From Escherichia phage KKP 3954, in the sequence record OR067838.1: a DNA stretch of 64,000 nt, one strand, 5' to 3'. The notes under the pieces are model-generated. The model did no database searches, was not told the origin of the DNA, and saw only the letters and a program-made list of their open reading frames with translations. Position numbers and translations under genes: made by a program. Numbering within the stretch: position 1 is the stretch's first letter; each line of letters starts with the position of its first letter. Below are positions 1,380-45,024 of the stretch, piece by piece.

Positions 1380-1859
1380 TTAGTCCTTCTTGACTTTAAC
1401 GCCCATTGCGCCTATACTCAAACCTTTAAGAACGCCGTCTTTACGAGCTTGATATAATTCAGGGTCGTTGAATTGGATTTTAACGAGGGGAGTTCCTTCC
1501 ACAACGAGTTCGTCACCAATGTAACAATCGACTTCATTTACCCAAGCTTTAATTGGAGAAAACTTATCGGTGTTCTTCATGTGACCAAGATTACCACTAA
1601 TGTTGGTAATATTCTCATTGAAGTTGTCAACCATCTTCCTGATTTCCAAATCAGACATGCGCTCTCCGTGGAGATCGTCTTCTTCAGGTGGACAATACAA
1701 GACCTCAATAACCTGCATCTTTTCTTCATCAAATTTATTTTGTTTGACTAAAGTTTCAGGTTTTTGAGATGGTATAGAATCTTGTTGGGATTCAGAATTC
1801 TCTTTAAAACCAGCGAAGGTTTTGAAGAGTTCCCACAGTGTATCTTTATTGAGTTCCAT
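1380..1859 (-). CDS. head-module hypothetical protein (possible prohead protease or assembly factor)
   Basis: 159 aa ORF between portal and scaffold genes, 3-nt gap to scaffold; no motif recognised. Confidence 0.4.
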   Translation of the reverse strand: MELNKDTLWELFKTFAGFKENSESQQDSIPSQKPETLVKQNKFDEEKMQVIEVLYCPPEEDDLHGERMSDLEIRKMVDNFNENITNISGNLGHMKNTDKFSPIKAWVNEVDCYIGDELVVEGTPLVKIQFNDPELYQARKDGVLKGLSIGAMGVKVKKD

Positions 1860-30007: not shown

Positions 30008-30493
30008 ATGCGCTATCTGGTAACAGGTGGTCTTGGTTTTATTGGGAGCGCCGTGGTGCGCTCTCTTTGTCAAGATCCTAATAACGAAGTTTTTATCATT
30101 GATAAAATGGGTTATGCAGCAGACATTGAGAATGTAGGTGATATCACTCACGCTAAACTAAGCATGACAGATTTGGCAAACGAAGCCCAGGTCAAAAGTT
30201 TAGTAGTAGAGTGCAATCCCGATTTCATCATTCACTTAGCGGCAGAGAGCCATGTGGATAATTCTATCAAGAATCCACGAGCTTTCATCGACTCCAATAT
30301 TATTGGTACATACAATTTATTGGAAGCTGCAAGGCTCCTCCCAAAGAATAAACTGAAGATGTTCATACACGTCTCCACAGACGAAGTGTATACGGTGATA
30401 TGGCAGACTCTGGCGTTCCCTTTACCGAAGAGACAGCTTATGCCCCTTCAAGCCCGTACAGTGCGTCTAAGGCAGCATCTGACCATCTTGTGA
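30008..30493 (+). CDS. rmlB: dTDP-glucose 4,6-dehydratase, N-terminal part (frame-disrupted)
   Basis: VTGGLGFIGS Rossmann motif; HVSTDEVY then frame loss. Confidence 0.65.
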   Translation: MRYLVTGGLGFIGSAVVRSLCQDPNNEVFIIDKMGYAADIENVGDITHAKLSMTDLANEAQVKSLVVECNPDFIIHLAAESHVDNSIKNPRAFIDSNIIGTYNLLEAARLLPKNKLKMFIHVSTDEVYTVIWQTLAFPLPKRQLMPLQARTVRLRQHLTIL

Positions 30494-31002
30494 AAGCTTG
30501 GCACCGTACCTACGATTTACCTGTTGTGATAACCAACTGCTCCAATAACTTTGGACCCTATCAACATCCAGAAAAGCTGATCCCAAAAATCATCACAAGT
30601 ATCTTGACGAATAAAGAGATTCCGGTGTATGGTAAAGGCGATCAGGTGCGAGACTGGCTTTTTGTTGAGGATCATGCGCGAGCTATTCTTCAAGTGGCAA
30701 CAGGTGGAGAACCAGGTAAAACGTATAATGTGGGAACACGTAATCCCAAAACCAATATGGAGATCATCTATATGGTTTGTGACTACATGGATGCTGTACA
30801 TCCAGAAGCAGGAACCTACCCTTCTTCCAACTTGATAACTTTTGTTGAAGATCGTAAAGGGCATGACTTGCGTTATGAAATCAATCCTTCTAAGATAGAG
30901 TTTGAACTGGGTTGGAGTGCAAACTCTACATTTGAACAAGATCTCTACTCAACGATTGAATGGTACTTAAACAACCCTCAATGGTGGAGTGGGAAGATTT
31001 AA
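30400..31002 (+). CDS. rmlB: dTDP-glucose 4,6-dehydratase, C-terminal part in second frame
   Basis: [32 protein letters not shown] (catalytic YxxxK region) open from about 30388; about 2 nt extra at GTGTATACGG. Confidence 0.65.
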
Positions 31003-31010
31003 GGAGGGCT

Positions 31011-31889
31011 ATGAAAGGTATTATTTTGGCGGGAGGAAGTGGAACCCGCCTTCATCCGGTAACACGCAGTGTGAGCAAGCAATTGCTCCCTGTGTATGAC
31101 AAACCCATGATCTACTACCCTTTATCGGTATTGATGTTGGCTGACATTAAGGATATCTTAATCATTACCACACCAGGCGATCAGGAAGACTTTGAGTATC
31201 TTCTCGGAGATGGGTCTATGTTTGGGATAAAACTCACTTACGCAATCCAATCCGAGCCACGAGGTCTTGCGGACGCTTTCATCATCGGTAAAGATTTTAT
31301 CGGAGAAGACTCTGTTGCTCTTATTTTAGGTGACAACCTATTCTTCGGACAAAGCTTTGGTAAACTACTGATTAACGCCAGTGAGATGGTAGATGTTTGT
31401 GGCGGAGCTTGTATCTTCGGGTATTTGGTGAAAGATCCTGAACGATTCGGTGTGGTTGAATTTGGGAGTAATCGTCAAGCTATTTCTATTGAAGAGAAAC
31501 CTGAAAATCCTAAATCAGATTATGCTGTCACAGGTTTGTATTTCTATGATAACTCTGTTGTTCAACGTGCATTAGAAGTAACCCCTTCCGCGCGTGGAGA
31601 ACTGGAGATCACAGATATCAATCGCAGCTACCTCGAAGACAGGAAGTTACAAGTGGAAGTTCTCGGACGAGGATTTACTTGGCTTGACACAGGAACACAC
31701 GCCAGTCTGATGGAAGCTGGTCAATTCGTGCAGACTATTGAGAACCGTCAAGGATTGAAGATTGCGTGCCTGGAAGAAATTGCTTTCAAAAAAGGGTGGA
31801 TTTCTTTAGAGACTTTGTTGTATCATGGAAACTCACTGAAGAAAACAGAATACGGGCAATACCTACTCAAATTAGCGGAGAGAAAATGA
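31011..31889 (+). CDS. rmlA: glucose-1-phosphate thymidylyltransferase
   Basis: Track ORF 30960..31889; AGGAGGG RBS supports start [14 protein letters not shown]. Confidence 0.8.
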
Positions 31890-32452
31890 AAGTAGAAAAA
31901 ACAAAAATTGAAGGTGCGGTAATTATCAAACCAGACGTTTATAAAGATGATCGTGGTTTCTTTTTAGAAACATATAATGAACAAAAATACGAAGATATCA
32001 TTGGTAGACAAACTTTCGTTCAAGATAACATGTCTAAATCAAACTTCGGTGTTTTGCGAGGAATGCACTTTCAAACAAATAATCCGCAAGGTAAGCTTGT
32101 TCGTTGTGTAAGTGGGGAAGTATTGGATTTCGCTGTAGACCTACGTAAAGATAGTCCTACTTACGGTGCTTGGGACGGTGTTGTTCTTCGTGCACGACAC
32201 CATACACAGTTCTGGCTTCCACCTGGTTTGGCACATGGTTTTATAGTGCTGAGTATGGATGCTATCTTCGAATACAAATGCACAACTCCATACGACCCTT
32301 CCAGCGAACAAAGTTTACGTTGGGATGATCCTGATATAGGGATTGATTGGGGCTTCGATATGATTTTTGACGAAGATTTTAAACCTATCTTATCAACAAA
32401 AGATGCAATGGCTAAGTCTTTTCAACAGCTACGTAGCGAGGGTGTATGCTAA
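31886..32452 (+). CDS. rmlC: dTDP-4-dehydrorhamnose 3,5-epimerase
   Basis: Track ORF 31766..32452; start [10 protein letters not shown] overlaps rmlA stop (ATGA); cupin-type motifs DDRGFF and RGMHFQ. Confidence 0.75.
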
Positions 32453-33288
32453 CATATCTGGTATTGGGTGGTAATGGACAACTGGGACAAGCTTTACGTA
32501 AAGTGGCTCCTTCAAATGTGTCTTTAATTTATCCTAAAGAACGTGTAGATATTACAAATTTTGAAGCTGTGCGAAACGCTATTGTTGAAGATTATGTAGA
32601 TGGTGTTATTAATTGCGCTGCTTATACGGCTGTAGATAAAGCAGAACATGATTTTGCTACTGCTTTGGCTGTTAATGCCTATGGCCCTGCAAATACTGCG
32701 GCAGTGTGCAGCAAACTTAAAATTGATTTTGTGCATATTTCTACAGACTATATTTTTAATTATTCTCATCCTATTTTTGAAGATACTACACCTAACCCAA
32801 TAAACAATTATGGGTATACGAAAGAACTTGGTGAAAAAATGGTGCGAGGAGTTAACCCAAATGCATATATTATTCGAACAGCCTCGGTATATAGCGAATT
32901 TGGAAATAACTTTCTAAAAACCATGTTGTCTCGCTATAATGATGGACAACGTGATTTTATTATTGTTGCTGATCAGTTCTCTTGTCCAACATATGCCCCA
33001 GATTTAGCAGAAGCTATTTTTGAAGTATTAAAAACAGGTTGGTCAAGATCTGTAAAGACTTACCATTTTGCAGGAAGCCATCTTATTTCTTGGGCGGAGT
33101 TTGCGGAAAAGATCTTGACACAGATGCCAGAACCTGTTAAGATATCGGCGGTATCAGCTTCAACCTATAATGCTCCAGCAGCACGTCCGGTGAAGTCACA
33201 ATTAGTAACCAGTCACTATCTTACAAAATCAGATTTAAATAAAGGTATTGAACGGTCTTTAGCAGTATTACTTAATAAGGAGAGGTAA
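32446..33288 (+). CDS. rmlD: dTDP-4-dehydrorhamnose reductase
   Basis: 280 aa; N-terminal LGGNGQLG Rossmann motif; completes B-A-C-D order. Confidence 0.75.
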   Translation: MLTYLVLGGNGQLGQALRKVAPSNVSLIYPKERVDITNFEAVRNAIVEDYVDGVINCAAYTAVDKAEHDFATALAVNAYGPANTAAVCSKLKIDFVHISTDYIFNYSHPIFEDTTPNPINNYGYTKELGEKMVRGVNPNAYIIRTASVYSEFGNNFLKTMLSRYNDGQRDFIIVADQFSCPTYAPDLAEAIFEVLKTGWSRSVKTYHFAGSHLISWAEFAEKILTQMPEPVKISAVSASTYNAPAARPVKSQLVTSHYLTKSDLNKGIERSLAVLLNKER

Positions 33289-35543: not shown

Positions 35544-36235
35544 TGACGACAATTATTGCAACCAAAAATAAGATTTTGAGTGACGGTAAGGTAACTTTTG
35601 GTGGACGTGTAGATTCTATTAATTTCAAAAAGGTCCGAAAAATTGGAGATTACCTTGTAGGTGGTGCTGGTCGTCTGACCTCCGTGCTTTCTTTCTTTCA
35701 ATGGTTTGAACAAAATCTACAGTGCGAAGCAGCACGTGATGCTGTCCCTGGTTTGATGATTCACTCTGATCCAGATAAAGAAGATGAAGAGTTTATTGCA
35801 CTTGTTGTTCATCCTGACGGACGTATTTTCCTGCACGAAGGTAACAACCCAACACGTGCATATCCGATTGATGAAGAATATTATGCGGTAGGAAGCGGGT
35901 CAGACTTTGCTTTAGCTGCTCTTGATGCAGGGGCAACACCAGAACAGGCTATGGAAGTAGCTAAAAAGCGAGATGCTTTTTCTGGTGGTGAAACATTTGT
36001 TGAAGAACAAGATGAGATTATTGAATTAACAGACGATGATTTAGAAAACTTCTCCAAAGAAGAATTGATCAATCTTTTGAAATTCGGTAATCCCTACGGT
36101 GAAGAAGAACCTCGTAACGTGGCAGGTAACGAGGCGGATACTGAAGAAAAATCTGTTGCAGAAAACAACTTGACTTCTAAATCTGAAAATATTAATCTCG
36201 TAAATGTGGCGGATTTCGAAGGAACCGCTATTTAA
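35543..36235 (+). CDS. HslV-like (proteasome beta-type, Ntn-hydrolase) peptidase
   Basis: 230 aa; GTG start giving M-TTIIA (N-terminal Thr nucleophile); GGAGRLTS and AVGSGSDFALAALDAG resemble HslV; acidic C-terminal extension. Confidence 0.6.
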   Translation: MTTIIATKNKILSDGKVTFGGRVDSINFKKVRKIGDYLVGGAGRLTSVLSFFQWFEQNLQCEAARDAVPGLMIHSDPDKEDEEFIALVVHPDGRIFLHEGNNPTRAYPIDEEYYAVGSGSDFALAALDAGATPEQAMEVAKKRDAFSGGETFVEEQDEIIELTDDDLENFSKEELINLLKFGNPYGEEEPRNVAGNEADTEEKSVAENNLTSKSENINLVNVADFEGTAI

Positions 36236-36241
36236 CAAACT

Positions 36242-36255
36242 GCCCCTTCGGGGGC
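36242..36255 (+). terminator. GCCCC-UUCG-GGGGC hairpin
   Basis: Stem-inverted variant of the recurrent UUCG hairpin, right after the HslV-like gene. Confidence 0.4.
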
Positions 36256-36280
36256 ATTTCTTAAACATAGGAGATTAATA

Positions 36281-36716
36281 ATGTTACAAGTTCCTGCTAA
36301 GTTTGTTGAAGGCGCTATCCACTCTTACCGTCAAACATGTAAGAGGGCAAGAAACTGTTTAGATGGTCTGGTGGCAAAAACCTATACTGTTGAAAAAGAA
36401 AAAACGTTGGTTTGGCAAAGATGTTTACGAAGTTAATATTTTTGGTGAACATAAACTAAACCACGATACTCCTGAAAACATGTTAGAAATATTTCTAAGA
36501 GATGACAAAATATCTCCTATGGATTACCAACTTTTAAAATTTTATGATTCTTCTTTGGCTATTGATAAGTTTGTTGAAGATATTCTGTCTAGAAAAACAG
36601 ATAAAAACACTTATCCTCTAGAGGCTGATCAAATAGGATTATTAAACGAGATTTCATCCTTTAAAGAGTTGGATAATATTACAAAAGAGGAGATTTTAGA
36701 TGGCATTAGATTATGA
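36281..36716 (+). CDS. hypothetical protein, frame-disrupted at a poly(A) run
   Basis: Strong RBS TAGGAGATTAATA-ATG at 36281 (frame open to about 36436); track ORF 36363..36716 in another frame; frames overlap across AAAAAGAAAAAA. Confidence 0.45.
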
Positions 36717-37209
36717 TCGCCCAACGAGCGATTATTATCCGACACCGCAAAAAGCAATCAACAGTTTGTTTAGTGTTATAGATTTCAAAAATCTAAAGGA
36801 AGAAGGTTGGGTTTTTGCAGAACCTTGTAGAGGTGAAGCTGAAGCGATTTATCGCCATTTTCCTGAAGGTTCAGAATATTGTGAACTTGAAGAAGGTAAA
36901 GATTATTTTAGTCATGAATGGGAAAATCGTCCCGACATTATAATCACAAATCCTCCATTCAAGTTAGCAATGGAGTTCTTGGAAAAGAGCTTAAAAGAGG
37001 CGGATGTTTGTATTTATCTTCTTCGGTTGGGCTTCTTGGAGTCAAAGAAACGACGAGAGTTCCATCAAAAGAATCCACCAACAAACCTTATAGTCCTTTC
37101 AGAACGGCCTTCGTTTGTTGCAGGTGGAACAGATAAGACAGCATACGCTTGGTATGTATACGACCCAAAGAATCGTTTGGGCCTCTCTCAACCATTTTAT
37201 TTTGTTTAA
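36700..37209 (+). CDS. DNA N6-adenine methyltransferase (small phage Dam-like)
   Basis: 169 aa; catalytic IIITNPPF (NPPF motif IV); AGAGGAG RBS. Confidence 0.55.
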   Translation: MALDYDRPTSDYYPTPQKAINSLFSVIDFKNLKEEGWVFAEPCRGEAEAIYRHFPEGSEYCELEEGKDYFSHEWENRPDIIITNPPFKLAMEFLEKSLKEADVCIYLLRLGFLESKKRREFHQKNPPTNLIVLSERPSFVAGGTDKTAYAWYVYDPKNRLGLSQPFYFV

Positions 37210-37221
37210 GGAGTGTGAACT

Positions 37222-37458
37222 ATGGGTAAACTAATTATGACAGTGGCTATTGATTTTGATGAAGTAGATGAAAGCCTCAACCTTTCACTTTCTACTGATG
37301 TAGAGGGTGAAATGGATAATATTGAAGCAGCTACTGCTCTTTTCTTCAAAAAGGCCATTGAAGTTTATGCCGAACATGCTGCAAATCAGGCAGTAGATTA
37401 CGGTGGTATCGTGCGAGCTTTGGTTCACTCTACCGAGGACAATGACTGGGAAGACTAA
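37222..37458 (+). CDS. hypothetical acidic protein
   Basis: 78 aa. Confidence 0.5.
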   Translation: MGKLIMTVAIDFDEVDESLNLSLSTDVEGEMDNIEAATALFFKKAIEVYAEHAANQAVDYGGIVRALVHSTEDNDWED

Positions 37459-37661
37459 TGGCTTACAATTATTACTGCATTTATGCACATGAAAAGAAGA
37501 AAGGTGACACTGGGACTAACGTTTATGCGGAGTCTGAATCTCATGCAAAAGAGATTGGTGCTATCCTTTTATCACGCTGGACTGGAAATAATTACAGTGC
37601 AGAAGATATGTTTGCAGAAGTGGATTCTAGTATCCAAGAAGGCAACATAACAACTACGTGA
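37458..37661 (+). CDS. hypothetical protein
   Basis: 67 aa; ATGA overlap. Confidence 0.45.
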   Translation: MAYNYYCIYAHEKKKGDTGTNVYAESESHAKEIGAILLSRWTGNNYSAEDMFAEVDSSIQEGNITTT

Positions 37662-37707
37662 TATACTTATACTCCCTTCTCGGAGGGAGTATTTTTAAGG
37701 AGGGATT

Positions 37708-37902
37708 ATGCAGAGCGGAGAAGAACTTTTAGAGAAACAATTCTCAACGCGTCAACAAGCTTTAAGTTATATGGTTTTTCTAAGCAATCTTGATGTGAAT
37801 GAGATACTTTTACGGCGCGAAGGTAATTTCTGGAGCGTTAAATACCATGCAACAAGATCTGTAATCTACCTAGAAGAGGCGGAATTCTCTTTGGTAGAAT
37901 GA
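37708..37902 (+). CDS. hypothetical protein
   Basis: 64 aa; AGGAGGG RBS; preceded by hairpin plus T-run. Confidence 0.45.
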   Translation: MQSGEELLEKQFSTRQQALSYMVFLSNLDVNEILLRREGNFWSVKYHATRSVIYLEEAEFSLVE

Positions 37903-37916
37903 TCCGAGGAGTAGTT

Positions 37917-38489
37917 ATGCGTTCAACTTTCACTGGCAAAATAAACGCTGGTTTAATTTTTACCGCAGTAAGCATTCTTAGCAAAAAGTTTAAAGTTGTT
38001 AACTTACCTGTGTGTGTCGATTTCGATCATGTCTTTGATCCTTCGAACCCCACTCGTTGCATAGTAAGGAGTAATGTTGAAAACCCAACAGAAAATCTTT
38101 TTTATGTAACAAAACCATCTCAAAGCATACTTAACCAGGTTGAGGCGAAATTGATACCTAACGGTAAATATTACTCCTTTTTACCTTGCAAGTCGGTTGA
38201 AGTAGAGAATAGCAATACTTTCGCTAACAACTTGTCTGTATTCGTTTTCTTTGTTTCGCACGAAGATGAAACAGATGAAATGGTAGCAACAGTGAGATCA
38301 CTTTATGACTCTTTAGGGGTTGTTTATAGACAACAAGTGTGCGAAAATAATAAAGCTTGTGTAGATTTCATTATCAACGGTATTTGTGTTTGTAGAGTAG
38401 AATCTTTTTGGCTGCACGATACATATGTGACTGTAGCAGAGGTTATATCTGAACCAAAATTTAGTCATGCGGTTTCGTTAATAATTTGA
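37917..38489 (+). CDS. hypothetical protein
   Basis: Track ORF 37899..38489; GAGGAG RBS supports start MRSTFTGK. Confidence 0.5.
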   Translation: MRSTFTGKINAGLIFTAVSILSKKFKVVNLPVCVDFDHVFDPSNPTRCIVRSNVENPTENLFYVTKPSQSILNQVEAKLIPNGKYYSFLPCKSVEVENSNTFANNLSVFVFFVSHEDETDEMVATVRSLYDSLGVVYRQQVCENNKACVDFIINGICVCRVESFWLHDTYVTVAEVISEPKFSHAVSLII

Positions 38490-38499
38490 GGAGGAAGGA

Positions 38500-38829
38500 A
38501 TGGAAATTACTACAGAACAAGCCCTTATCGACGAGGGTCGTAAAATCTTAGAAAAGCATTTAGGGGAGATTCATAAAACTCCTGGCTATTTGGGTTGGAG
38601 AATTGTTGAAGCTGTAGATTTCCTTCCTCGTAACAGTAAAAGCGTCGAAATGCGATCTCTTTTCTTATTAGTAAAGGTGGATGGGGATACACCTTTTAAA
38701 GATGCCGCAGAGCATATTGAAAAAGTTGAAGAGAAAGCTTATGCAGAATTTGCCGATCTTGTTTTAGAACAAAAGATTGAAGGAAAGGTGAATATTTTTA
38801 TTTTCTTAGATTTTGAGGAGGATAAGTGA
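38500..38829 (+). CDS. hypothetical protein
   Basis: 109 aa; GGAGGAAGG RBS. Confidence 0.55.
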   Translation: MEITTEQALIDEGRKILEKHLGEIHKTPGYLGWRIVEAVDFLPRNSKSVEMRSLFLLVKVDGDTPFKDAAEHIEKVEEKAYAEFADLVLEQKIEGKVNIFIFLDFEEDK

Positions 38830-39569
38830 TCATACATAGAGAAATTACTGTTAAAAGCGATCAAGATCTTTTTATAATTGGAGATCTACACGGTTGTTAT
38901 AATTTGTATGAAAAAGGAAAGGCAAAGTTAGGTATCCGAGATACAGATGTAGTTGTATCTTTAGGAGATCTTACTGACCGTGGAAAGCAAAACTTTCGTT
39001 GTGTTTTAGAATTTACTCGTAAACACAATCGCTACGCTATTCGTGGAAATCATGAAGACATGATGATTAAAGGTATGCTGGAAGGAGATCGTAGCTACTT
39101 CGAGTGTTGGTATCAAAATGGAGGATATACAGTCCTTGAAGAATGTGGTGAAGAAGGAGCTACAGCCTTAGCAATGATGACAGAAGATTTACCTGTTGTT
39201 CTCATTGTTAACTACAGAGGCATGAAACTTGCGTTTATTCATGGTGGGTATCCATCTTCTTTGGAATATCTCCCTGTAACAGATATTCCAGAATACACTT
39301 TGAAGATGACAAAAACACAGGAAAACCGTTTTGCTGAAGCACTTATGTGGGACAGAGATATGGTGGACTGTGCTAAAGAGGGAATGAAACTTCCTGTTGT
39401 GATGGGTGTGGACTATGTGTTTCATGGACACTCTTATGTAAAAACACCTATTATCAATGCGAATCGTGTTTATATGGATACTGGATCTGTGTTCAATAAT
39501 AACTTAACATTTGCTTATTTCGATATGGACGGTGGTCTTCAATTTTATTCAACTCTTGAGGAGGATTAA
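38826..39569 (+). CDS. Ser/Thr protein phosphatase (PPP family, lambda-phosphatase-like)
   Basis: 247 aa; GTG start; motifs GDLHG, GDLTDRG, RGNHE. Confidence 0.75.
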   Translation: MIIHREITVKSDQDLFIIGDLHGCYNLYEKGKAKLGIRDTDVVVSLGDLTDRGKQNFRCVLEFTRKHNRYAIRGNHEDMMIKGMLEGDRSYFECWYQNGGYTVLEECGEEGATALAMMTEDLPVVLIVNYRGMKLAFIHGGYPSSLEYLPVTDIPEYTLKMTKTQENRFAEALMWDRDMVDCAKEGMKLPVVMGVDYVFHGHSYVKTPIINANRVYMDTGSVFNNNLTFAYFDMDGGLQFYSTLEED

Positions 39570-39877
39570 TGTATAAGATTACAATTATTCAAAGTGTAGG
39601 TAATATCCGTAAAGAAGTTATCTTAGAAACAGAAGATGTTAATCTTGTTCGTGAGATTGTTTTTAAGGAAGATAACCTGCAAGCTGTAGAATCGGATGCA
39701 CCGAATCTTATGGTGGATCAAGAATATTCTGAACTTCGTCGTATTTTTGAAGAGATTCAGAAGAAAGAAACACAACCTACCATAAAACCTTTTGGTCCTT
39801 ATGATCCGAGCAATCCTAGCAGTCCTTGGATCATGAGAAATACAGAACCATATACACCTTTTGAAATTACTTGCTGA
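39569..39877 (+). CDS. hypothetical protein
   Basis: 102 aa; ATGA-type overlap. Confidence 0.5.
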   Translation: MYKITIIQSVGNIRKEVILETEDVNLVREIVFKEDNLQAVESDAPNLMVDQEYSELRRIFEEIQKKETQPTIKPFGPYDPSNPSSPWIMRNTEPYTPFEITC

Positions 39878-39884
39878 GGTGTTT

Positions 39885-40466
39885 ATGGCAGAATTGTTTT
39901 ATACGGGAGTTGGAAGTAGAGACATCTCCGAAGAAGAGTGGGCTTTGATGGTAGGCATAGGGAAATGGCTTTCCAACCTTGGGTTTAAATTAAGGTCTGG
40001 GAAGGCAGAGGGTAGTGATTCTGCTTTTGAAACAGGTGTCCAAGAGTCTGAAAATCCTACTAACAAGGAGATTTATGTTCCTTGGGAAAATTTCAAAGGT
40101 AATCAGATTCCAGGTGATGTTATTGTTCTTGCAAAACCAGATACAATGAACTATGCTATCTCTGTGCAATGGATCAAAGATGTTCACCCAGCTTATGAAA
40201 AGCTTAAGCAGGGTGCTAGAAAATTGCACCAACGTAATGTGCATCAGGTGTTAGGTAAAGATTTGGAGAATCCTGCTCCATCATGTTTCTTGTTGGCTTG
40301 TGCCGATACTGATAAACACGGAGATGCAAAAGGCGGAACAGCTACGGCTTGGAAGATAGCTAAAGCAAATAATGTTCCTTGTTTAAACATTCGTGGGAGA
40401 ACAAAACAAGAGATTTATGATTTTCTACGACCTTTGGTAATGAGGGCAATAACAAGTGATTCCTAA
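39885..40466 (+). CDS. DprA/SLOG-like Rossmann-fold protein
   Basis: Track ORF 39861..40466; GAGGTG RBS supports start MAELFYTG; YTGVGSRD then LRSGKAEGSDSAFETG resembles DprA/Smf. Confidence 0.4.
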   Translation: MAELFYTGVGSRDISEEEWALMVGIGKWLSNLGFKLRSGKAEGSDSAFETGVQESENPTNKEIYVPWENFKGNQIPGDVIVLAKPDTMNYAISVQWIKDVHPAYEKLKQGARKLHQRNVHQVLGKDLENPAPSCFLLACADTDKHGDAKGGTATAWKIAKANNVPCLNIRGRTKQEIYDFLRPLVMRAITSDS

Positions 40467-40968
40467 ACGTAAACGTGGTGAACAAAGAACAAACTTGGCA
40501 GAAATCTTAGATTACAACATGGTTAATGATGTGACAAAAGAAATTCTCCCTGTTGTAGAAGATATTCTTCGTAGAGGGTTACGATTCTGCTCGGATCGGG
40601 TGCATTTCATGTGGACACATAAAAGTGATTCCGCTTTGAATTTCTATCCTTTAGACTACACTCTGAACAATGCAGAGATGAAAGATATTAACAAATATTT
40701 AATGGGGTATAAAGATATAACCGAAACTGTTCTTGGAGAATTGGCAGAAATCTTGGCTAACGATATCCTTAGAAATATTAATAAGGCTCTTGACAGAAGC
40801 CCAGAAGGAGTAGTAGTATCTTTTGCTGTGCCAGATATGGTTAAATATGAGTCTACAATACCTAATAAAGCTTATGCCTTTCTTCGGAGAGACGTTCGTG
40901 GAAATGTGTTGGAGATGGAGTCAAACTACAAGATTGAGGAGGTTTTATGGCAGAGTTCGGATCAGTAA
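40456..40968 (+). CDS. hypothetical protein
   Basis: 170 aa. Confidence 0.5.
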   Translation: MIPKRKRGEQRTNLAEILDYNMVNDVTKEILPVVEDILRRGLRFCSDRVHFMWTHKSDSALNFYPLDYTLNNAEMKDINKYLMGYKDITETVLGELAEILANDILRNINKALDRSPEGVVVSFAVPDMVKYESTIPNKAYAFLRRDVRGNVLEMESNYKIEEVLWQSSDQ

Positions 40969-41237
40969 CAAGTTTTGAAAGTAACTTCGTTACAGCTTGG
41001 GAAGCTTGGGATGAAATGGGTGTTGGGGAACTTTATTTTTACAATGTAACATTACGTCCAGAGTATGCTTACCTGGTACCAGAAGGAACAGTTCAAATTG
41101 GCATGTATTTGTCTTCTCAAGACGGTGTTGTTCAATTTGAGTTTTATTCGAACACAACGGACAACGAATTTACATATCGTGCATTTCATGTCACCATGTC
41201 TTTAGGAGAGGAGAAATTTTATGACGACCAAGTTTAA
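40947..41237 (+). CDS. hypothetical protein
   Basis: 96 aa. Confidence 0.45.
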   Translation: MAEFGSVTSFESNFVTAWEAWDEMGVGELYFYNVTLRPEYAYLVPEGTVQIGMYLSSQDGVVQFEFYSNTTDNEFTYRAFHVTMSLGEEKFYDDQV

Positions 41238-41418
41238 AACAGTAGAAGAAGCCGTAAAAGCAGCTTATGAGGCTTTAGCGGAAGCAGAGCAGTTAGCAGA
41301 TGAGACTGGTAAAGGTTTCCGTTTCTCCCCTGAATATGGGATGGGTGGCTATTATGATCCAGAAGATGAAAATGAGAATACTGGAACAAATTGGCATCCA
41401 TCTTCTTTAAGTTGTTAA
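41221..41418 (+). CDS. small protein, C-terminal W-x-SS-x-C family member 1
   Basis: 65 aa ending NWHPSSLSC. Confidence 0.5.
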   Translation: MTTKFKTVEEAVKAAYEALAEAEQLADETGKGFRFSPEYGMGGYYDPEDENENTGTNWHPSSLSC

Positions 41419-41429
41419 TAGGAGGTAAA

Positions 41430-41705
41430 GTGGGAATCGAAGATATCAAAGGTTATAAGGCGCATACTGACGATAAGATTGGCAAGGTTAACGCTATTAA
41501 AGATGCAGAAGAGCGTTTAGGTTTAATCTTCAAAGCTTTAGAGGAAGAGTATTGTGAAGCATATCATGGGTCTTTTGACGGCACAGAAAAAGAATTAGAT
41601 CTTGCATACGAACGTATTGATCAAATCCGTTGTGCTATTAAACATTTAAAAGAAGCTAGTATGTGGGCTTGTCGTTCAGTTTTCCAACCAGAGGAGAAAT
41701 ACTAA
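41430..41705 (+). CDS. hypothetical protein
   Basis: Track ORF 41391..41705; TAGGAGG RBS supports GTG start at 41430. Confidence 0.45.
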   Translation: MGIEDIKGYKAHTDDKIGKVNAIKDAEERLGLIFKALEEEYCEAYHGSFDGTEKELDLAYERIDQIRCAIKHLKEASMWACRSVFQPEEKY

Positions 41706-41923
41706 TGAGTGATCGTAATGTTGAAGAATTAACTGAAAAAGCCCAAGCTATTATGGCTTTAGTGGACGAACTTACAAAAGAAGCTGAAGATGCTGGTTTT
41801 GGTCTTAGTTTAGAAAATGACGCAATCTGTTTTGAAGATTGGCAATCCTCTTCTTGTTATGGTGAAGGTGATGATGGTTTCGTCGTTAATTCTCAAGGCG
41901 TTTGGCACAGTAGTAGCTGTTAA
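41705..41923 (+). CDS. small protein, C-terminal W-x-SS-x-C family member 2
   Basis: Track ORF 41663..41923; GAGGAG RBS supports start MSDRNVEEL; ends GVWHSSSC. Confidence 0.5.
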   Translation: MSDRNVEELTEKAQAIMALVDELTKEAEDAGFGLSLENDAICFEDWQSSSCYGEGDDGFVVNSQGVWHSSSC

Positions 41924-41932
41924 GGAGAGATT

Positions 41933-42205
41933 GTGGAGTCTGAAGGCGAACTGCTGATAAAAAAGAAAGTTAAAGAGATGGAACAAGCACAAAGAAAGTT
42001 TCGTAAGGAGATTGAAGAACTTTGTGAACAGTTTCAGGAACAAGCTTGGATAGGTGACTACGGTAACGGAGAAACTTATTACCCTACAGGAACGCCAGCC
42101 GCAGATCACTATATTGATTTCATTTGTGAAGATTATGGTGTAGAGTTGGATGAAAATGGTTTAACCACAAGAGGTGTTTGGATCTCTTCTTCCTCAATGT
42201 GTTAG
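41933..42205 (+). CDS. small protein, C-terminal W-x-SS-x-C family member 3
   Basis: 90 aa; GTG start after AAGGAG; ends GVWISSSSMC. Confidence 0.5.
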   Translation: MESEGELLIKKKVKEMEQAQRKFRKEIEELCEQFQEQAWIGDYGNGETYYPTGTPAADHYIDFICEDYGVELDENGLTTRGVWISSSSMC

Positions 42206-42215
42206 TAAATAATAA

Positions 42216-42239
42216 CCCGCTTCGGCGGGTTTTTTTATT
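42216..42239 (+). terminator. rho-independent terminator
   Basis: CCCGC-UUCG-GCGGG hairpin followed by TTTTTTTATT. Confidence 0.65.
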
Positions 42240-42266
42240 GACAGGAATCTGGAAGCTTGATAAACT
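42238..42266 (+). promoter_or_regulatory. sigma70-consensus promoter
   Basis: TTGACA-N17-TAAACT. Confidence 0.5.
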
Positions 42267-42296
42267 TAACCTATCAACCAATAGAGGAGAAATATT

Positions 42297-43240
42297 ATGG
42301 TGTTAATTGGTAGCCGTGCATTGCAAATTCATGCTATGGACATGGGAAAAGACTTGTATCGCCCTTGTGTAGATTTAGATTACCTGTGTATACAGAACAA
42401 GAGTGGGAAGAATTATCAAAAATGTTCTCTCAAGAGGAGTTTGTTGAACTTGTAGAACGTAAAGGAAACAAAGGCCATGTCAAAATGATAGCTGGTGCAC
42501 ATTTGGAATACGATATTGCTTCTCAAGGAGATAGCACAGAAGCTTTGATTAGTTATTGTGAAGATTCTGATGATGTTCGTCGAACTTACGCTGGACATGT
42601 TGTTGCTCCTTTAGATGTGCTCTACCTTCTTAAAATGAGTCATCGTTTTAAAAAGGATAGTCCTCACTTCTTTAAAACTATGAAAGATATTCATTTCATG
42701 CGATCACTAGGTGCAAAGATCCCAGAAAATCTTAAGAGTATTTATGAGTTGCGTGAGAAAGAAACATACACTTACTCTCATCCAAACTTAAACGTGAGAA
42801 GTAAAGACTTCTTTAAAGGTGATGAGGTTCCGTATGTTTATGATCATGACTCTATTCATGAAGCAATCGCAGTAATGGATGCTCCAGCATATAAATCTTA
42901 TATGAAAGATGGAAGTGAAGTTATGACCAGCAAAGAAAAGTTTTTTGCTCAACCAAAACATGTGCGCCTGTTAGGTGTTTATGAAGAAGCGTGCGTTTTG
43001 GCTTTGGAACGTTCACAAATTCCTTTCGGTGAAGAGATCGGAGGTCCAACCCCTAAGCAAAGTTTTATGATGGCTTTATCTAAAGTTTGCACATCTATCA
43101 CTAGTGGTTGGTTTAGGGAATATGCTTGGGAGAACTTTTATATTGTTACTAAACTATATGAAAACATGGGTGAAAACGACTATGTTGAACGTTTTAAAGC
43201 TAATCAACATGTAGTTAAGCCTTTTGAAGGAGGTTATTAA
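42297..43240 (+). CDS. hypothetical protein, frame-disrupted near its 5' end
   Basis: Strong RBS AGAGGAGAAATATT-ATG at 42297 (frame 0, about 52 codons); main 291-aa ORF 42365..43240 in another frame, open from 42314. Confidence 0.45.
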
Positions 43241-43637
43241 TATGTGTGGATATCTTTCAGAAAGTTATTTCAAAGTGACGCATGAGGATTTAGAAAAAGC
43301 ACGATTGAAATTGACAGCTATTATTGAATACTCTAATACTGTTGATCACAGATTAAAGACTACTAAAGTATCTGTTCCTTGTTGGTTAGGTTTACGGCAT
43401 AAAACAATGTCTCAACATGATCATGTTGTTCGAGAGATGCATGGTTGGTGTTGGTTTCACGATGTGGCTTTGCATTTTGGTTATATTACAGAAGAAGAAC
43501 ATAGATTCTGTGAACTAACGTATCGTATTCCAACCCTTCACGATCTAGATTTGTGGAAGAAAGCAAACGAGATTTTTCTTACAGAAAGTGATTGGCGTAA
43601 AGTTATGGCTTGTCTTGAATGGAGGGGTAATGAGTAA
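43224..43637 (+). CDS. hypothetical protein
   Basis: 137 aa; GGAGG RBS. Confidence 0.5.
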   Translation: MKEVINMCGYLSESYFKVTHEDLEKARLKLTAIIEYSNTVDHRLKTTKVSVPCWLGLRHKTMSQHDHVVREMHGWCWFHDVALHFGYITEEEHRFCELTYRIPTLHDLDLWKKANEIFLTESDWRKVMACLEWRGNE

Positions 43638-44313
43638 AACAGTTTTGTCTATGTTTGACGGATCTGGGATCATGGTGTTACGTTATGCCGAAGCAGGTCA
43701 CAAGTGTTTTTGTGTAAACGCTGATGAAGGGGACCACGGTAAATACGAGGTTAGGATGGAGCACCCAAACATAACCTATGTGAATGCTTGGATAGATTCT
43801 ACATTCAACCCTGAAGATCATGGAATACCTAAACCCGATATTATTTTTGGATTTCCACCTTGCACTATGTTAGCAGGTAGTGGTAGCAAACACGAACGCA
43901 GCACAGAGGAATTAGATGAAGCTTTAGCTAATATTCGTGTAGTGGAAGCTTTGGGTAACAAATACAATGTTCCTTGGATGATTGAGAACCCAGTAGGTAA
44001 ACTTTCAACCTTATGGCGTAAACCCGATTTTTACTTTGATCCTTATGAGTATGGTGGGTATTTGTTTGAAGAGGAAGGAAGCTTTCATCCTAAAATGCCT
44101 ACCCGTGATGGGTATACAAAGAAAACTTGTATTTGGCACGGGAATGGTTTTGTTCAACCAGTGAAGAAACCAGTAGATCATATAGGCTGTTTCTGGGGTT
44201 GGAAAAGCTTAGGCGGAGCTAGTGCAAAAACAAAACAACTTAGATCACTAACCGCACGTGGTTTTGCTCGTGCAGTGTTTTTGTCTAACAATCTTCTAGA
44301 TAAGGAGAAATAA
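43630..44313 (+). CDS. DNA (cytosine-5)-methyltransferase-like protein
   Basis: Track ORF 43588..44313; GGAGGGG RBS supports start MSKTVL; motif I-like SMFDGSG, motif IV FGFPPC, motif VI ENP. Confidence 0.55.
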   Translation: MSKTVLSMFDGSGIMVLRYAEAGHKCFCVNADEGDHGKYEVRMEHPNITYVNAWIDSTFNPEDHGIPKPDIIFGFPPCTMLAGSGSKHERSTEELDEALANIRVVEALGNKYNVPWMIENPVGKLSTLWRKPDFYFDPYEYGGYLFEEEGSFHPKMPTRDGYTKKTCIWHGNGFVQPVKKPVDHIGCFWGWKSLGGASAKTKQLRSLTARGFARAVFLSNNLLDKEK

Positions 44314-44966
44314 TGTCAAATTCAAAACCAGTAGTTGCTTATCAAGTAGATCGTAATGATGGTGAAGGAAGTGTTGTTATTTTCAGCACACACGGTCTTG
44401 AGGCTCGTCGAAAAGGTGCGTATCGTTTAGAATGTGAGTTTGAAGACTGCACAAGCCACCGTGTCAAACAATTTGATCAATATGCTGATAAAGGCTTCGT
44501 CCCTATCAAAGCTTTACTGGAAGATGGTTGGTGGGTATATTCTGCTTTTGATTACTCAAAACTGGAAGAGTCAGCTTCGTGCGCCTCCGAGATCGAATAT
44601 GATGATTACTATGACACTCTCTACCTTCCAGAATGGCTTGTCTTTTCCCCTGATGAGAGAAGCGTCTGGAAAACTTGGGAAGAAATGGAGAGACATGCAT
44701 ATAGCATCAATGAAGCCTTAGATCGTAAAGCTTGGTTTATTGAGGCAGTAAAGGCGGCATACCCTCAATTTTCATTCTGTGATTTCACTGGTGGCCCAGG
44801 GTACATTACACATACAGCCTCTTTTGAGTTCCCTGGTTCACGTTATAAAGGTAACGTTTATTGGGATTGGGATGAAAATAAACAACCTTCGGCTCAAGAC
44901 TTCCGTTGCTATGTTTGTCAAGGTGATCAAGAAGCCCTTGACAAATACCTACAAAGTCTGGTATAG
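44313..44966 (+). CDS. hypothetical protein
   Basis: 217 aa; ATGA overlap. Confidence 0.55.
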   Translation: MSNSKPVVAYQVDRNDGEGSVVIFSTHGLEARRKGAYRLECEFEDCTSHRVKQFDQYADKGFVPIKALLEDGWWVYSAFDYSKLEESASCASEIEYDDYYDTLYLPEWLVFSPDERSVWKTWEEMERHAYSINEALDRKAWFIEAVKAAYPQFSFCDFTGGPGYITHTASFEFPGSRYKGNVYWDWDENKQPSAQDFRCYVCQGDQEALDKYLQSLV

Positions 44967-45024
44967 TGCCAACATCTGAACAAAGCTTCCTGTTTCAGGG
45001 GGCTTTTCTTTTATAGGAGGGAAT

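Follow-up and report, generated by a model that had tools for sequence, protein, structure and literature searches.

The best described relative of the genes considered here is the Dcm protein of phage K42, a member of the Drexlerviridae. In a preprint on retron Ec86 (Eco1), every K42 escape mutant disrupted the 711-bp dcm gene, and the activity of K42 Dcm was identified as the trigger of the retron (10.1101/2023.08.16.553469), a result restated by later papers. Expression of K42 Dcm raised 5-methylcytosine (5mC) in the multicopy single-stranded DNA (msDNA) of the retron, as determined by liquid chromatography coupled to mass spectrometry (LC-MS), and the product co-migrated with a 5mC standard in LC-MS in a manner that depended on conserved residues; a C82A/E128A/K175A/K176A quadruple mutant was inactive, and the predicted structure superposed on DNMT3A (10.1101/2023.08.16.553469). 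Here, we compare with this and other described enzymes two genes found in a 64,000-nucleotide stretch of Escherichia phage KKP 3954 (sequence record OR067838.1), to which we refer as the window. Open reading frame (ORF) A encodes a protein of 169 amino acids (aa) and ORF B one of 227 aa. We consider it probable that both are solitary methyltransferase genes, with ORF B encoding a Dcm-like enzyme that produces 5mC in DNA and ORF A encoding a gamma-type amino-methyltransferase, likely directed at the N6 position of adenine in DNA.

The K42 genome is 95.4% identical to that of the BASEL phage KarlJaspers (10.1101/2023.08.16.553469), and we used the KarlJaspers Dcm (bas06_0055; MZ501090, 40087-40797, 236 aa) as a stand-in for the near-identical K42 protein. 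ORF B and KarlJaspers Dcm were 50% identical over 231 residues (E value, 1e-71). The residues changed in the inactive K42 mutant (C82, E128, K175, and K176 in K42 and KarlJaspers Dcm) aligned with C78, E119, K164, and K165 of ORF B. Based on a 42-sequence alignment of the ORF B family, which underlies all conservation values given for this protein, C78, E119, and K164 were invariant and K165 was conserved in at least 90% of members. The two proteins fall in the same size class, share the motifs FDGSG, FPPC, ENP, (T/F)KKT, and RSLTxRGFARAVF, and have no Pfam match; like ORF B, K42 Dcm matched DNMT3 best among solved structures. An earlier reading of the window, made from its sequence alone, had placed the 227-aa protein in the C5-cytosine class, and this assignment is upheld by the 50% identity to KarlJaspers Dcm, the activity on DNA shown for K42 Dcm, and the retained catalytic residues. 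Unlike the Dcm proteins of the Drexlerviridae, ORF B resides in a large myovirus, with another gene neighborhood, and the loop leading from motif VIII to the C-terminal helix differs between ORF B and KarlJaspers Dcm. This short loop was nearly invariant within the clade of ORF B itself and differed from the Dcm proteins of both KarlJaspers and JeffSchatz, a second BASEL phage.

Of the hallmarks of canonical C5-cytosine methyltransferases, motifs I, IV, and VI were found in ORF B as FDGSG (aa 9 to 13), FPPC (with Cys78), and ENP, all in invariant alignment columns. The predicted structure had a C5-cytosine fold of the DNMT3/M.HhaI type, with DNMT3 as the best match among solved structures, and the spacing between motifs I and VIII was close to that in M.HhaI. 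Several features departed from the canonical form. Motif VI reads ENP rather than the canonical ENV of M.HhaI, M.HaeIII, E. coli Dcm, and the DNMT3A/3B group; at the motif VIII position, two lysines (YTKKT) replace the canonical QxRxR; and the recognition domain of 50 to 90 residues is reduced to a loop of about 33. The C-terminal helix RSLTARGFARAVF, in which T201, K202, L204, R205, S206, and T208 were invariant in the family, looks like a merger of motifs IX and X. Because ORF B consists of a DNMT core with a minimal loop, the best structural match was to DNMT3, which has the shortest canonical recognition domain.

At 327 aa, M.HhaI exceeds ORF B by about 100 residues, and the sequence-only reading had called the ORF B protein unusually small. 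This description fits in comparison with M.HhaI-type bacterial enzymes but not among phages, because the size is the norm in a common phage family. We found 870 homologs at an E value of 1e-3 or better, and tblastn matches to the family occurred in 1,487 of 50,697 phage records, with members in Drexlerviridae, Klebsiella Webervirus-type phages, Dhillonvirus, Kagunavirus, and Vequintavirinae. PF00145 gave no match to ORF B even at an E value of 0.1, a level reached by only 3 of the 42 family members (best, 3.1e-6). PHROG 757 matched with an E value of 6.7e-85 over residues 13 to 239 of a 241-aa form of the protein. This longer form reflects a frame that is open from a GTG at position 43588; the real start is the ATG at 43630, which has GGAGGGG just upstream and agrees with GenBank.

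The closest described counterparts of ORF A are the gamma-class N6-adenine DNA methyltransferases. M.TaqI, MmeI, M.BseCI, CamA, and type I HsdM are 380 to 1000 aa long and have a C-terminal recognition domain or are paired with HsdS. ORF A, which is preceded by a good Shine-Dalgarno sequence (AAGAGGAG) and carries IIITNPPF at residues 80 to 87, shares with this class the (D/N)PP(Y/F) motif, the motif order X - I - IV, and the fold of the catalytic domain, as its predicted structure is an S-adenosylmethionine (SAM)-dependent methyltransferase fold like that of the gamma-class N6-adenine catalytic domain. Neither a gamma-class recognition domain nor a separate specificity subunit was found. In contrast to the gamma-class enzymes, ORF A stops about 30 residues past motif VIII, and no partner gene is conserved beside it. 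We regard the protein as devoid of a recognition domain because, in the predicted model, what follows RPSF (approximately 30 residues) does no more than complete the Rossmann sheet. Conservation in ORF A was assessed in a 46-sequence family alignment; apart from the motif residues listed in Table 1, R118 and W151 were invariant. The family consensus for motif I is EPCRGxGAIY, and the clade of the window protein has Ala at the usual second Gly position.

Table 1. Positions of ORF A, ORF B, their motifs, and the apparent transcription unit of ORF B in the window
Feature	Coordinates	Strand	Details
ORF A, putative single-domain amino-methyltransferase, gamma-type motif order	36700..37209	+	169 aa
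ORF A motif X, YYPTP, aa 12-16	36733..36747	+	T15 invariant; Y13 and P16 at least 90% conserved
ORF A motif I region, EPCRGEAEAI, aa 41-50, predicted SAM-binding loop	36820..36849	+	E41, P42, C43 invariant; G45 at least 90% conserved
ORF A motif IV, NPPF, aa 84-87, predicted catalytic	36949..36960	+	T83, N84, P85, P86 invariant
ORF A RPSF, aa 136-139, candidate motif VIII	37105..37116	+	R136, P137, F139 invariant
ORF B, putative Dcm-like C5-cytosine DNA methyltransferase, minimal recognition loop	43630..44313	+	227 aa
ORF B motif I, SMFDGSG, aa 7-13, predicted SAM binding	43648..43668	+	D10, G11, S12, G13 invariant
ORF B motif IV, PPC, aa 76-78, Cys78 predicted nucleophile	43855..43863	+	F75, P76, C78, T79 invariant
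ORF B motif VI, ENP, aa 119-121	43984..43992	+	E119, N120, P121 invariant
ORF B YTKKT, aa 162-166, motif VIII position	44113..44127	+	Y162, K164, T166 invariant
ORF B mini recognition loop, aa 171-203	44140..44238	+	about 33 residues, from motif VIII to the RSLTARGFARAVF helix
Apparent transcription unit with ORF B	42238..45006	+	consensus matches only: promoter-like site, four overlapping genes, terminator-like hairpin
Promoter-like site	42238-42266		consensus match
Terminator-like hairpin	44982-45006		consensus match

The ORF A family is very large. An exhaustive profile search recovered 13,754 representatives of 50%-identity clusters at E values of ≤1e-3 and 7,202 at ≤1e-10, and 543 phage records had a member, among them those of rV5-like phages, phi92, and Vibrio K139. 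Of the best 150 representatives, nearly all were 160 to 220 aa long, and the sole long proteins among them were tandem duplications of the same domain; fusions to other domains, which might have served as a clue to the substrate, were absent from these 150. In the tandem proteins, motif IV was degenerate in the first copy (NPPH or HPPS) and read NPPY in the second. The duplications with a degenerate first copy hint that the stand-alone proteins may act as asymmetric dimers in which one protomer is noncatalytic. Two of the tandem relatives (P0340 and P0368) have a signal-peptide-like N terminus ahead of the ORF A domains. Four relatives (P0190, P0203, P0225, and P0235) have a four-cysteine, zinc-ribbon-like insertion right after RPSF, and another (P0245) has a zinc-finger-like CxxC...C..C tail. 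These elements, which the window protein lacks, may be add-ons that bind nucleic acids.

The sequence-only reading had taken the 169-aa protein for a DNA methyltransferase. The amino-methyltransferase fold is borne out by our models, but the word "DNA" is not established, as the folds of DNA and RNA N6-adenine enzymes match about equally well. DNA enzymes ranked first in the Foldseek search with ORF A, and RNA N6-methyladenosine (m6A) enzymes fit the fold to about the same degree. Among curated models, the best match was EcoRI_methylase (E value, 0.02; 14.7 bits versus a cutoff of 26.4), confined to the motif IV segment, and no NCBIfam model matched. Sub-threshold Pfam matches among the 46 family members were to EcoRI_methylase in 34, Dam in 12, Eco57I in 9, and the RNA/protein "MTS" family in 8. 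The sequence matches and the predicted model thus lean modestly toward DNA as the likelier substrate. The alternative that fares best is that ORF A methylates rRNA or tRNA at N6 of adenine, as do METTL5/PH1948, KsgA, and Erm, or is a HemK/Mtq2 protein-glutamine methyltransferase, and in either case adjusts host translation. ORF A does resemble METTL5/PH1948 in its fold, its NPPF-type motif, and its single-domain architecture. However, its identity to the METTL5/PH1948 and KsgA/Erm RNA enzymes was only 17 to 20%; METTL5 needs TRMT112, whereas nothing equivalent is linked to ORF A, which has no conserved partner gene; and the ORF A family, unlike the METTL5/PH1948 and KsgA/Erm group, is phage-borne. 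We regard this alternative as unlikely. That the ORF A family as a whole might not comprise sequence-specific anti-restriction DNA methylases, its members being instead RNA m6A writers or DNA enzymes that need an asymmetric dimer, is to us quite doubtful.

Several small phage methyltransferases were considered as characterized relatives of ORF A and rejected. Kinship with the PF05869 "Dam" family, to which KarlJaspers Dam belongs (E value, 2.3e-60), reached an hhalign probability of 16% over 36 columns around motif IV in the comparison with KarlJaspers Dam. Hia5/Hin1523 is an alpha-class, Dam-related, nonspecific enzyme of 281 aa. PhiOS31_p25/phiP27 NP_543076, which is EcoGII-like and 352 aa long, aligned with ORF A at motif IV only (hhalign, 65% over 20 columns for the phiP27 enzyme). 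The PF05869 Dam proteins and Hia5/Hin1523 are nevertheless like ORF A in being solitary phage genes with a (D/N)PP(Y/F) motif that have been interpreted as anti-restriction functions, and the PF05869 Dam proteins and Hia5 provide a precedent for compact enzymes, with relaxed specificity in the case of Hia5. A ClaI digest in the paper on phage CB7 was of no use for ORF A, as host Dam methylation and phage methylation could not be separated in it.

Both genes are solitary. Over the 9 kb compared (positions 36000 to 45000 of the window), identity to Escherichia phage nieznany was 98.8%, which places the source in Phapecoctavirus, and dozens of other Phapecoctavirus genomes of about 150 kb (phAPEC8-like, Stephanstirmvirinae) were also at least 98% identical. 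ORF A and ORF B are unlinked, with 15 unrelated genes lying between them. None of the genes that flank them matched a nuclease or a defense gene, and none is annotated as such in nieznany. No partner gene (nuclease, specificity subunit, or activator) was conserved in 160 viral loci, examined by de novo ORF clustering, or in a Salmonella prophage, and ORF A had no conserved neighboring gene across 78 loci. The window neighbors of both genes recurred in close relatives only. Neighbors that seemed to recur beside ORF B homologs were an artifact of many near-identical genomes of about 50 kb. Because neither a flanking nuclease or defense match nor a co-traveling neighbor was found, we consider both genes to be orphans, in agreement with the sequence-only reading, which had noted the lack of an adjacent restriction endonuclease; neither has beside it the cognate endonuclease that defines a type II restriction-modification (RM) system.

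We infer the activity of both proteins, the substrate of ORF A, the targets, any dimerization, and the biological role from these comparisons and propose the following. In ORF B, FDGSG would bind SAM, Cys78 of FPPC would attack C6 of a flipped-out cytosine, and Glu119 of ENP would protonate N3, with Lys164 and Lys165 standing in for the arginines of motif VIII and the loop of about 33 residues taking the place of the usual target recognition domain. The product would be 5mC in DNA, and CCWGG has been suggested as the target of a relative. ORF A would be a catalytic Rossmann domain alone, most likely carrying out N6-adenine methylation of DNA with narrow specificity, and it may form dimers, with one protomer positioning the substrate. 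As to function, the phage most likely methylates its own replicating DNA, which would protect it against particular, not all, restriction enzymes. Methylation by a phage Dcm would come at a cost, as it can be sensed by retron Ec86.

E. coli MG1655 is Dcm+. In retron Ec86 tests in this strain, msDNA 5mC was low and the retron was untriggered without phage Dcm (10.1101/2023.08.16.553469). Phage Dcm and host Dcm must therefore differ, be it in their activity, in the form of the substrate, or in the site.

The proposal that two solitary DNA methyltransferases protect the phage has to be weighed against several observations. First, neither ORF A nor ORF B reached any Pfam or NCBIfam threshold, and the literature and small-methyltransferase candidates compared here included no characterized member of the ORF A family. 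PHROG families labeled "DNA methyltransferase" matched strongly (ORF A, 2.8e-59; ORF B, 6.7e-85). Such PHROG labels are unreliable, and because no curated threshold was reached, the identity of both proteins as methyltransferases needed other tests. Direct sequence searches of the PDB, whether started from the single proteins or from the family profiles, returned marginal matches only (M.HaeIII, E value of 0.09; Erm, DpnA, and HsdM, E values of 0.01 to 0.05) and were uninformative alone. Confident predicted models, in turn, gave both proteins the SAM-dependent methyltransferase fold expected in the sequence-only reading, and the two different chemistries that it had proposed, an amino-group methyltransferase (NPPF) and a C5-cytosine methyltransferase (Cys nucleophile), agree with the motifs, all of which were found as described. 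NPPF in ORF A was the sole [DNS]PP[YFWH] motif among window ORFs of at least 70 aa, and ORF B was the only window ORF that joins FxGxG, PC, and ENx.

Second, the CCWGG specificity of K42 Dcm was assumed from host Dcm and msDNA mutants and was not mapped (10.1101/2023.08.16.553469), and the target of ORF B may differ from that of the K42 and KarlJaspers enzymes because the recognition loops differ. Third, the BASEL study described the Vequintavirus group as "exceptionally susceptible" to EcoKI, EcoCFT_I, EcoRI, EcoRV, EcoP1_I, and EcoCFT_II. The BASEL Vequintavirus JeffSchatz has homologs of both genes, each with 48% identity: that of ORF A (177 aa) is syntenic and adjoins PhoH and protease genes, and that of ORF B encodes 254 aa. 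Because BASEL relatives with both homologs are exceptionally sensitive to these six RM systems, any protective role must be narrow. Protection against host restriction, as suggested in the sequence-only reading, is plausible, though its range is probably smaller than that reading conveyed. For the Drexlerviridae, BASEL found no simple link from methyltransferase genes to restriction phenotype. It is important to note that the anti-restriction role is the standard reading in papers on related phages, where it was drawn from BLAST or HHpred only.

Fourth, several palindromes were strongly avoided in the window. Avoidance of GTAC was striking (36 observed versus 171 expected; observed/expected ratio [O/E], 0.21; z, −10), and CCGG (O/E, 0.36), GGCC (0.47), and CTAG (0.51) were also depleted. 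CTGCAG (PstI) was not observed at all versus 12.6 expected and CAGCTG (PvuII) not at all versus 8.2 expected. These counts suggest that site avoidance, not methylation, handles enzymes that cut at GTAC, CCGG, GGCC, CTGCAG, and CAGCTG. The phage thus depends on avoiding the sites of some enzymes, and any protection by methylation must be narrow. CCWGG, GATC, GAATTC, and GATATC occurred at expectation. Site statistics were discarded as a clue to specificity, as host Dam and Dcm would account just as well for the non-avoidance of CCWGG and GATC.

The same observations bear on a broader form of protection, in which ORF A, ORF B, or both would be promiscuous, nearly sequence-independent enzymes of the Hia5/EcoGII type that blanket the genome, which would account for the lack of recognition domains. 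Nonspecific phage and prophage adenine methyltransferases that protect against many enzymes do exist (for example, PhiOS31_p25), a recognition domain is missing from ORF A and reduced to the short loop in ORF B, and GATC and CCWGG were not avoided in the window. However, the avoidance of GTAC, CCGG, and GGCC would be needless under blanket methylation, the ORF A family shows no relationship to the Hia5, EcoGII-like, and PF05869 families outside motif IV, and the ORF B loop, being nearly invariant in its clade, is in keeping with a single fixed specificity. The hosts of all six RM systems protect their own DNA by adenine methylation, which also counts against blanket protection, as does the exceptional sensitivity to these systems of BASEL Vequintavirinae and relatives with both homologs. 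We consider promiscuous methylation very improbable. That ORF B uses its DNMT fold for another reaction or substrate, such as C5-carboxymethyl transfer as in 8yf3 or Dnmt2-like tRNA methylation, is hardly credible, given that K42 Dcm made a 5mC-co-migrating species in DNA through the same conserved residues and that the DNA enzymes DNMT3B, DNMT3A, and M.HhaI matched ORF B as well or better.

The probable assignment of ORF A and ORF B to solitary DNA methyltransferases is of small value as a discovery, since both genes are already annotated in GenBank and RefSeq, one of them has a tested relative, and the same anti-restriction inference has been published for related phages. In nieznany, the homolog of ORF A (nieznany_51) is labeled "putative DNA methyltransferase" and that of ORF B (nieznany_68) "Dcm"; RefSeq labels the homologs of both alike as "DNA methyltransferase." ORF B belongs to a known phage Dcm-like family, and ORF A adds one more ordinary member to a very large annotated family, which is among the larger uncharacterized families with a methyltransferase fold in phages. 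The Dcm-like gene can be a liability as well as an asset, as retron Ec86 senses the activity of such enzymes, and this matters in selecting phAPEC8-like phages as therapy where the targeted E. coli strains have the retron.

ORF B lies in an apparent transcription unit (Table 1) whose four genes (42365-44966, plus strand) encode a DUF7275 protein (291 aa; Pfam E value, 6.9e-76), a 137-aa protein, ORF B, and a 217-aa protein, with overlapping stop and start codons. The partners of ORF B in this unit have no assigned function and were not linked to its distant homologs elsewhere. The plus-strand block that holds both methyltransferase genes also encodes ribonucleotide reductase, ThyX, dTDP-rhamnose genes, PhoH, an HslV-like peptidase, a NinI-like phosphatase, a DprA-like protein, and a Sir2 protein. 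The dTDP-rhamnose pathway is complete (rmlB, A, C, and D homologs) and lies upstream of both methyltransferase genes, at about 30010-33288 on the plus strand, as placed by offset from nieznany_40-43. Olsen et al. speculated on rhamnosylation of modified bases, and in BASEL, the putative dTDP glycosylation machinery conferred no evident protection from restriction in phi92-like phages.

Database labels in these genomes need checking. A third candidate methyltransferase (1380-1859, minus strand; 159 aa; phrog_1530), labeled "DNA methyltransferase" by RefSeq and PHROG 1530, was rejected, because the protein is really an XkdF-type prohead protease: its gene lies between those for the portal and the scaffold, it matched Peptidase_S78_2 (XkdF) above the Pfam threshold (E value, 1.4e-11), and BASEL annotates the equivalent gene as a prohead protease. 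For the 196-aa protein encoded at 37899-38489 (plus strand), the PHROG 4806 label "histidyl tRNA synthetase" (E value, 3.4e-63) had no supporting Pfam match and is probably unreliable, as the protein is far too short for HisRS. Finally, genes of the ORF A and ORF B families also occur in records under the names "Campylobacter phage" (such as MG065689 A110a, 146 kb) and "Acinetobacter phage vB_AbaM_ABPW7." The genes in these records were 85 to 99% identical to those of E. coli Phapecoctavirus and phi92-like phages, and the host labels of the records look doubtful.

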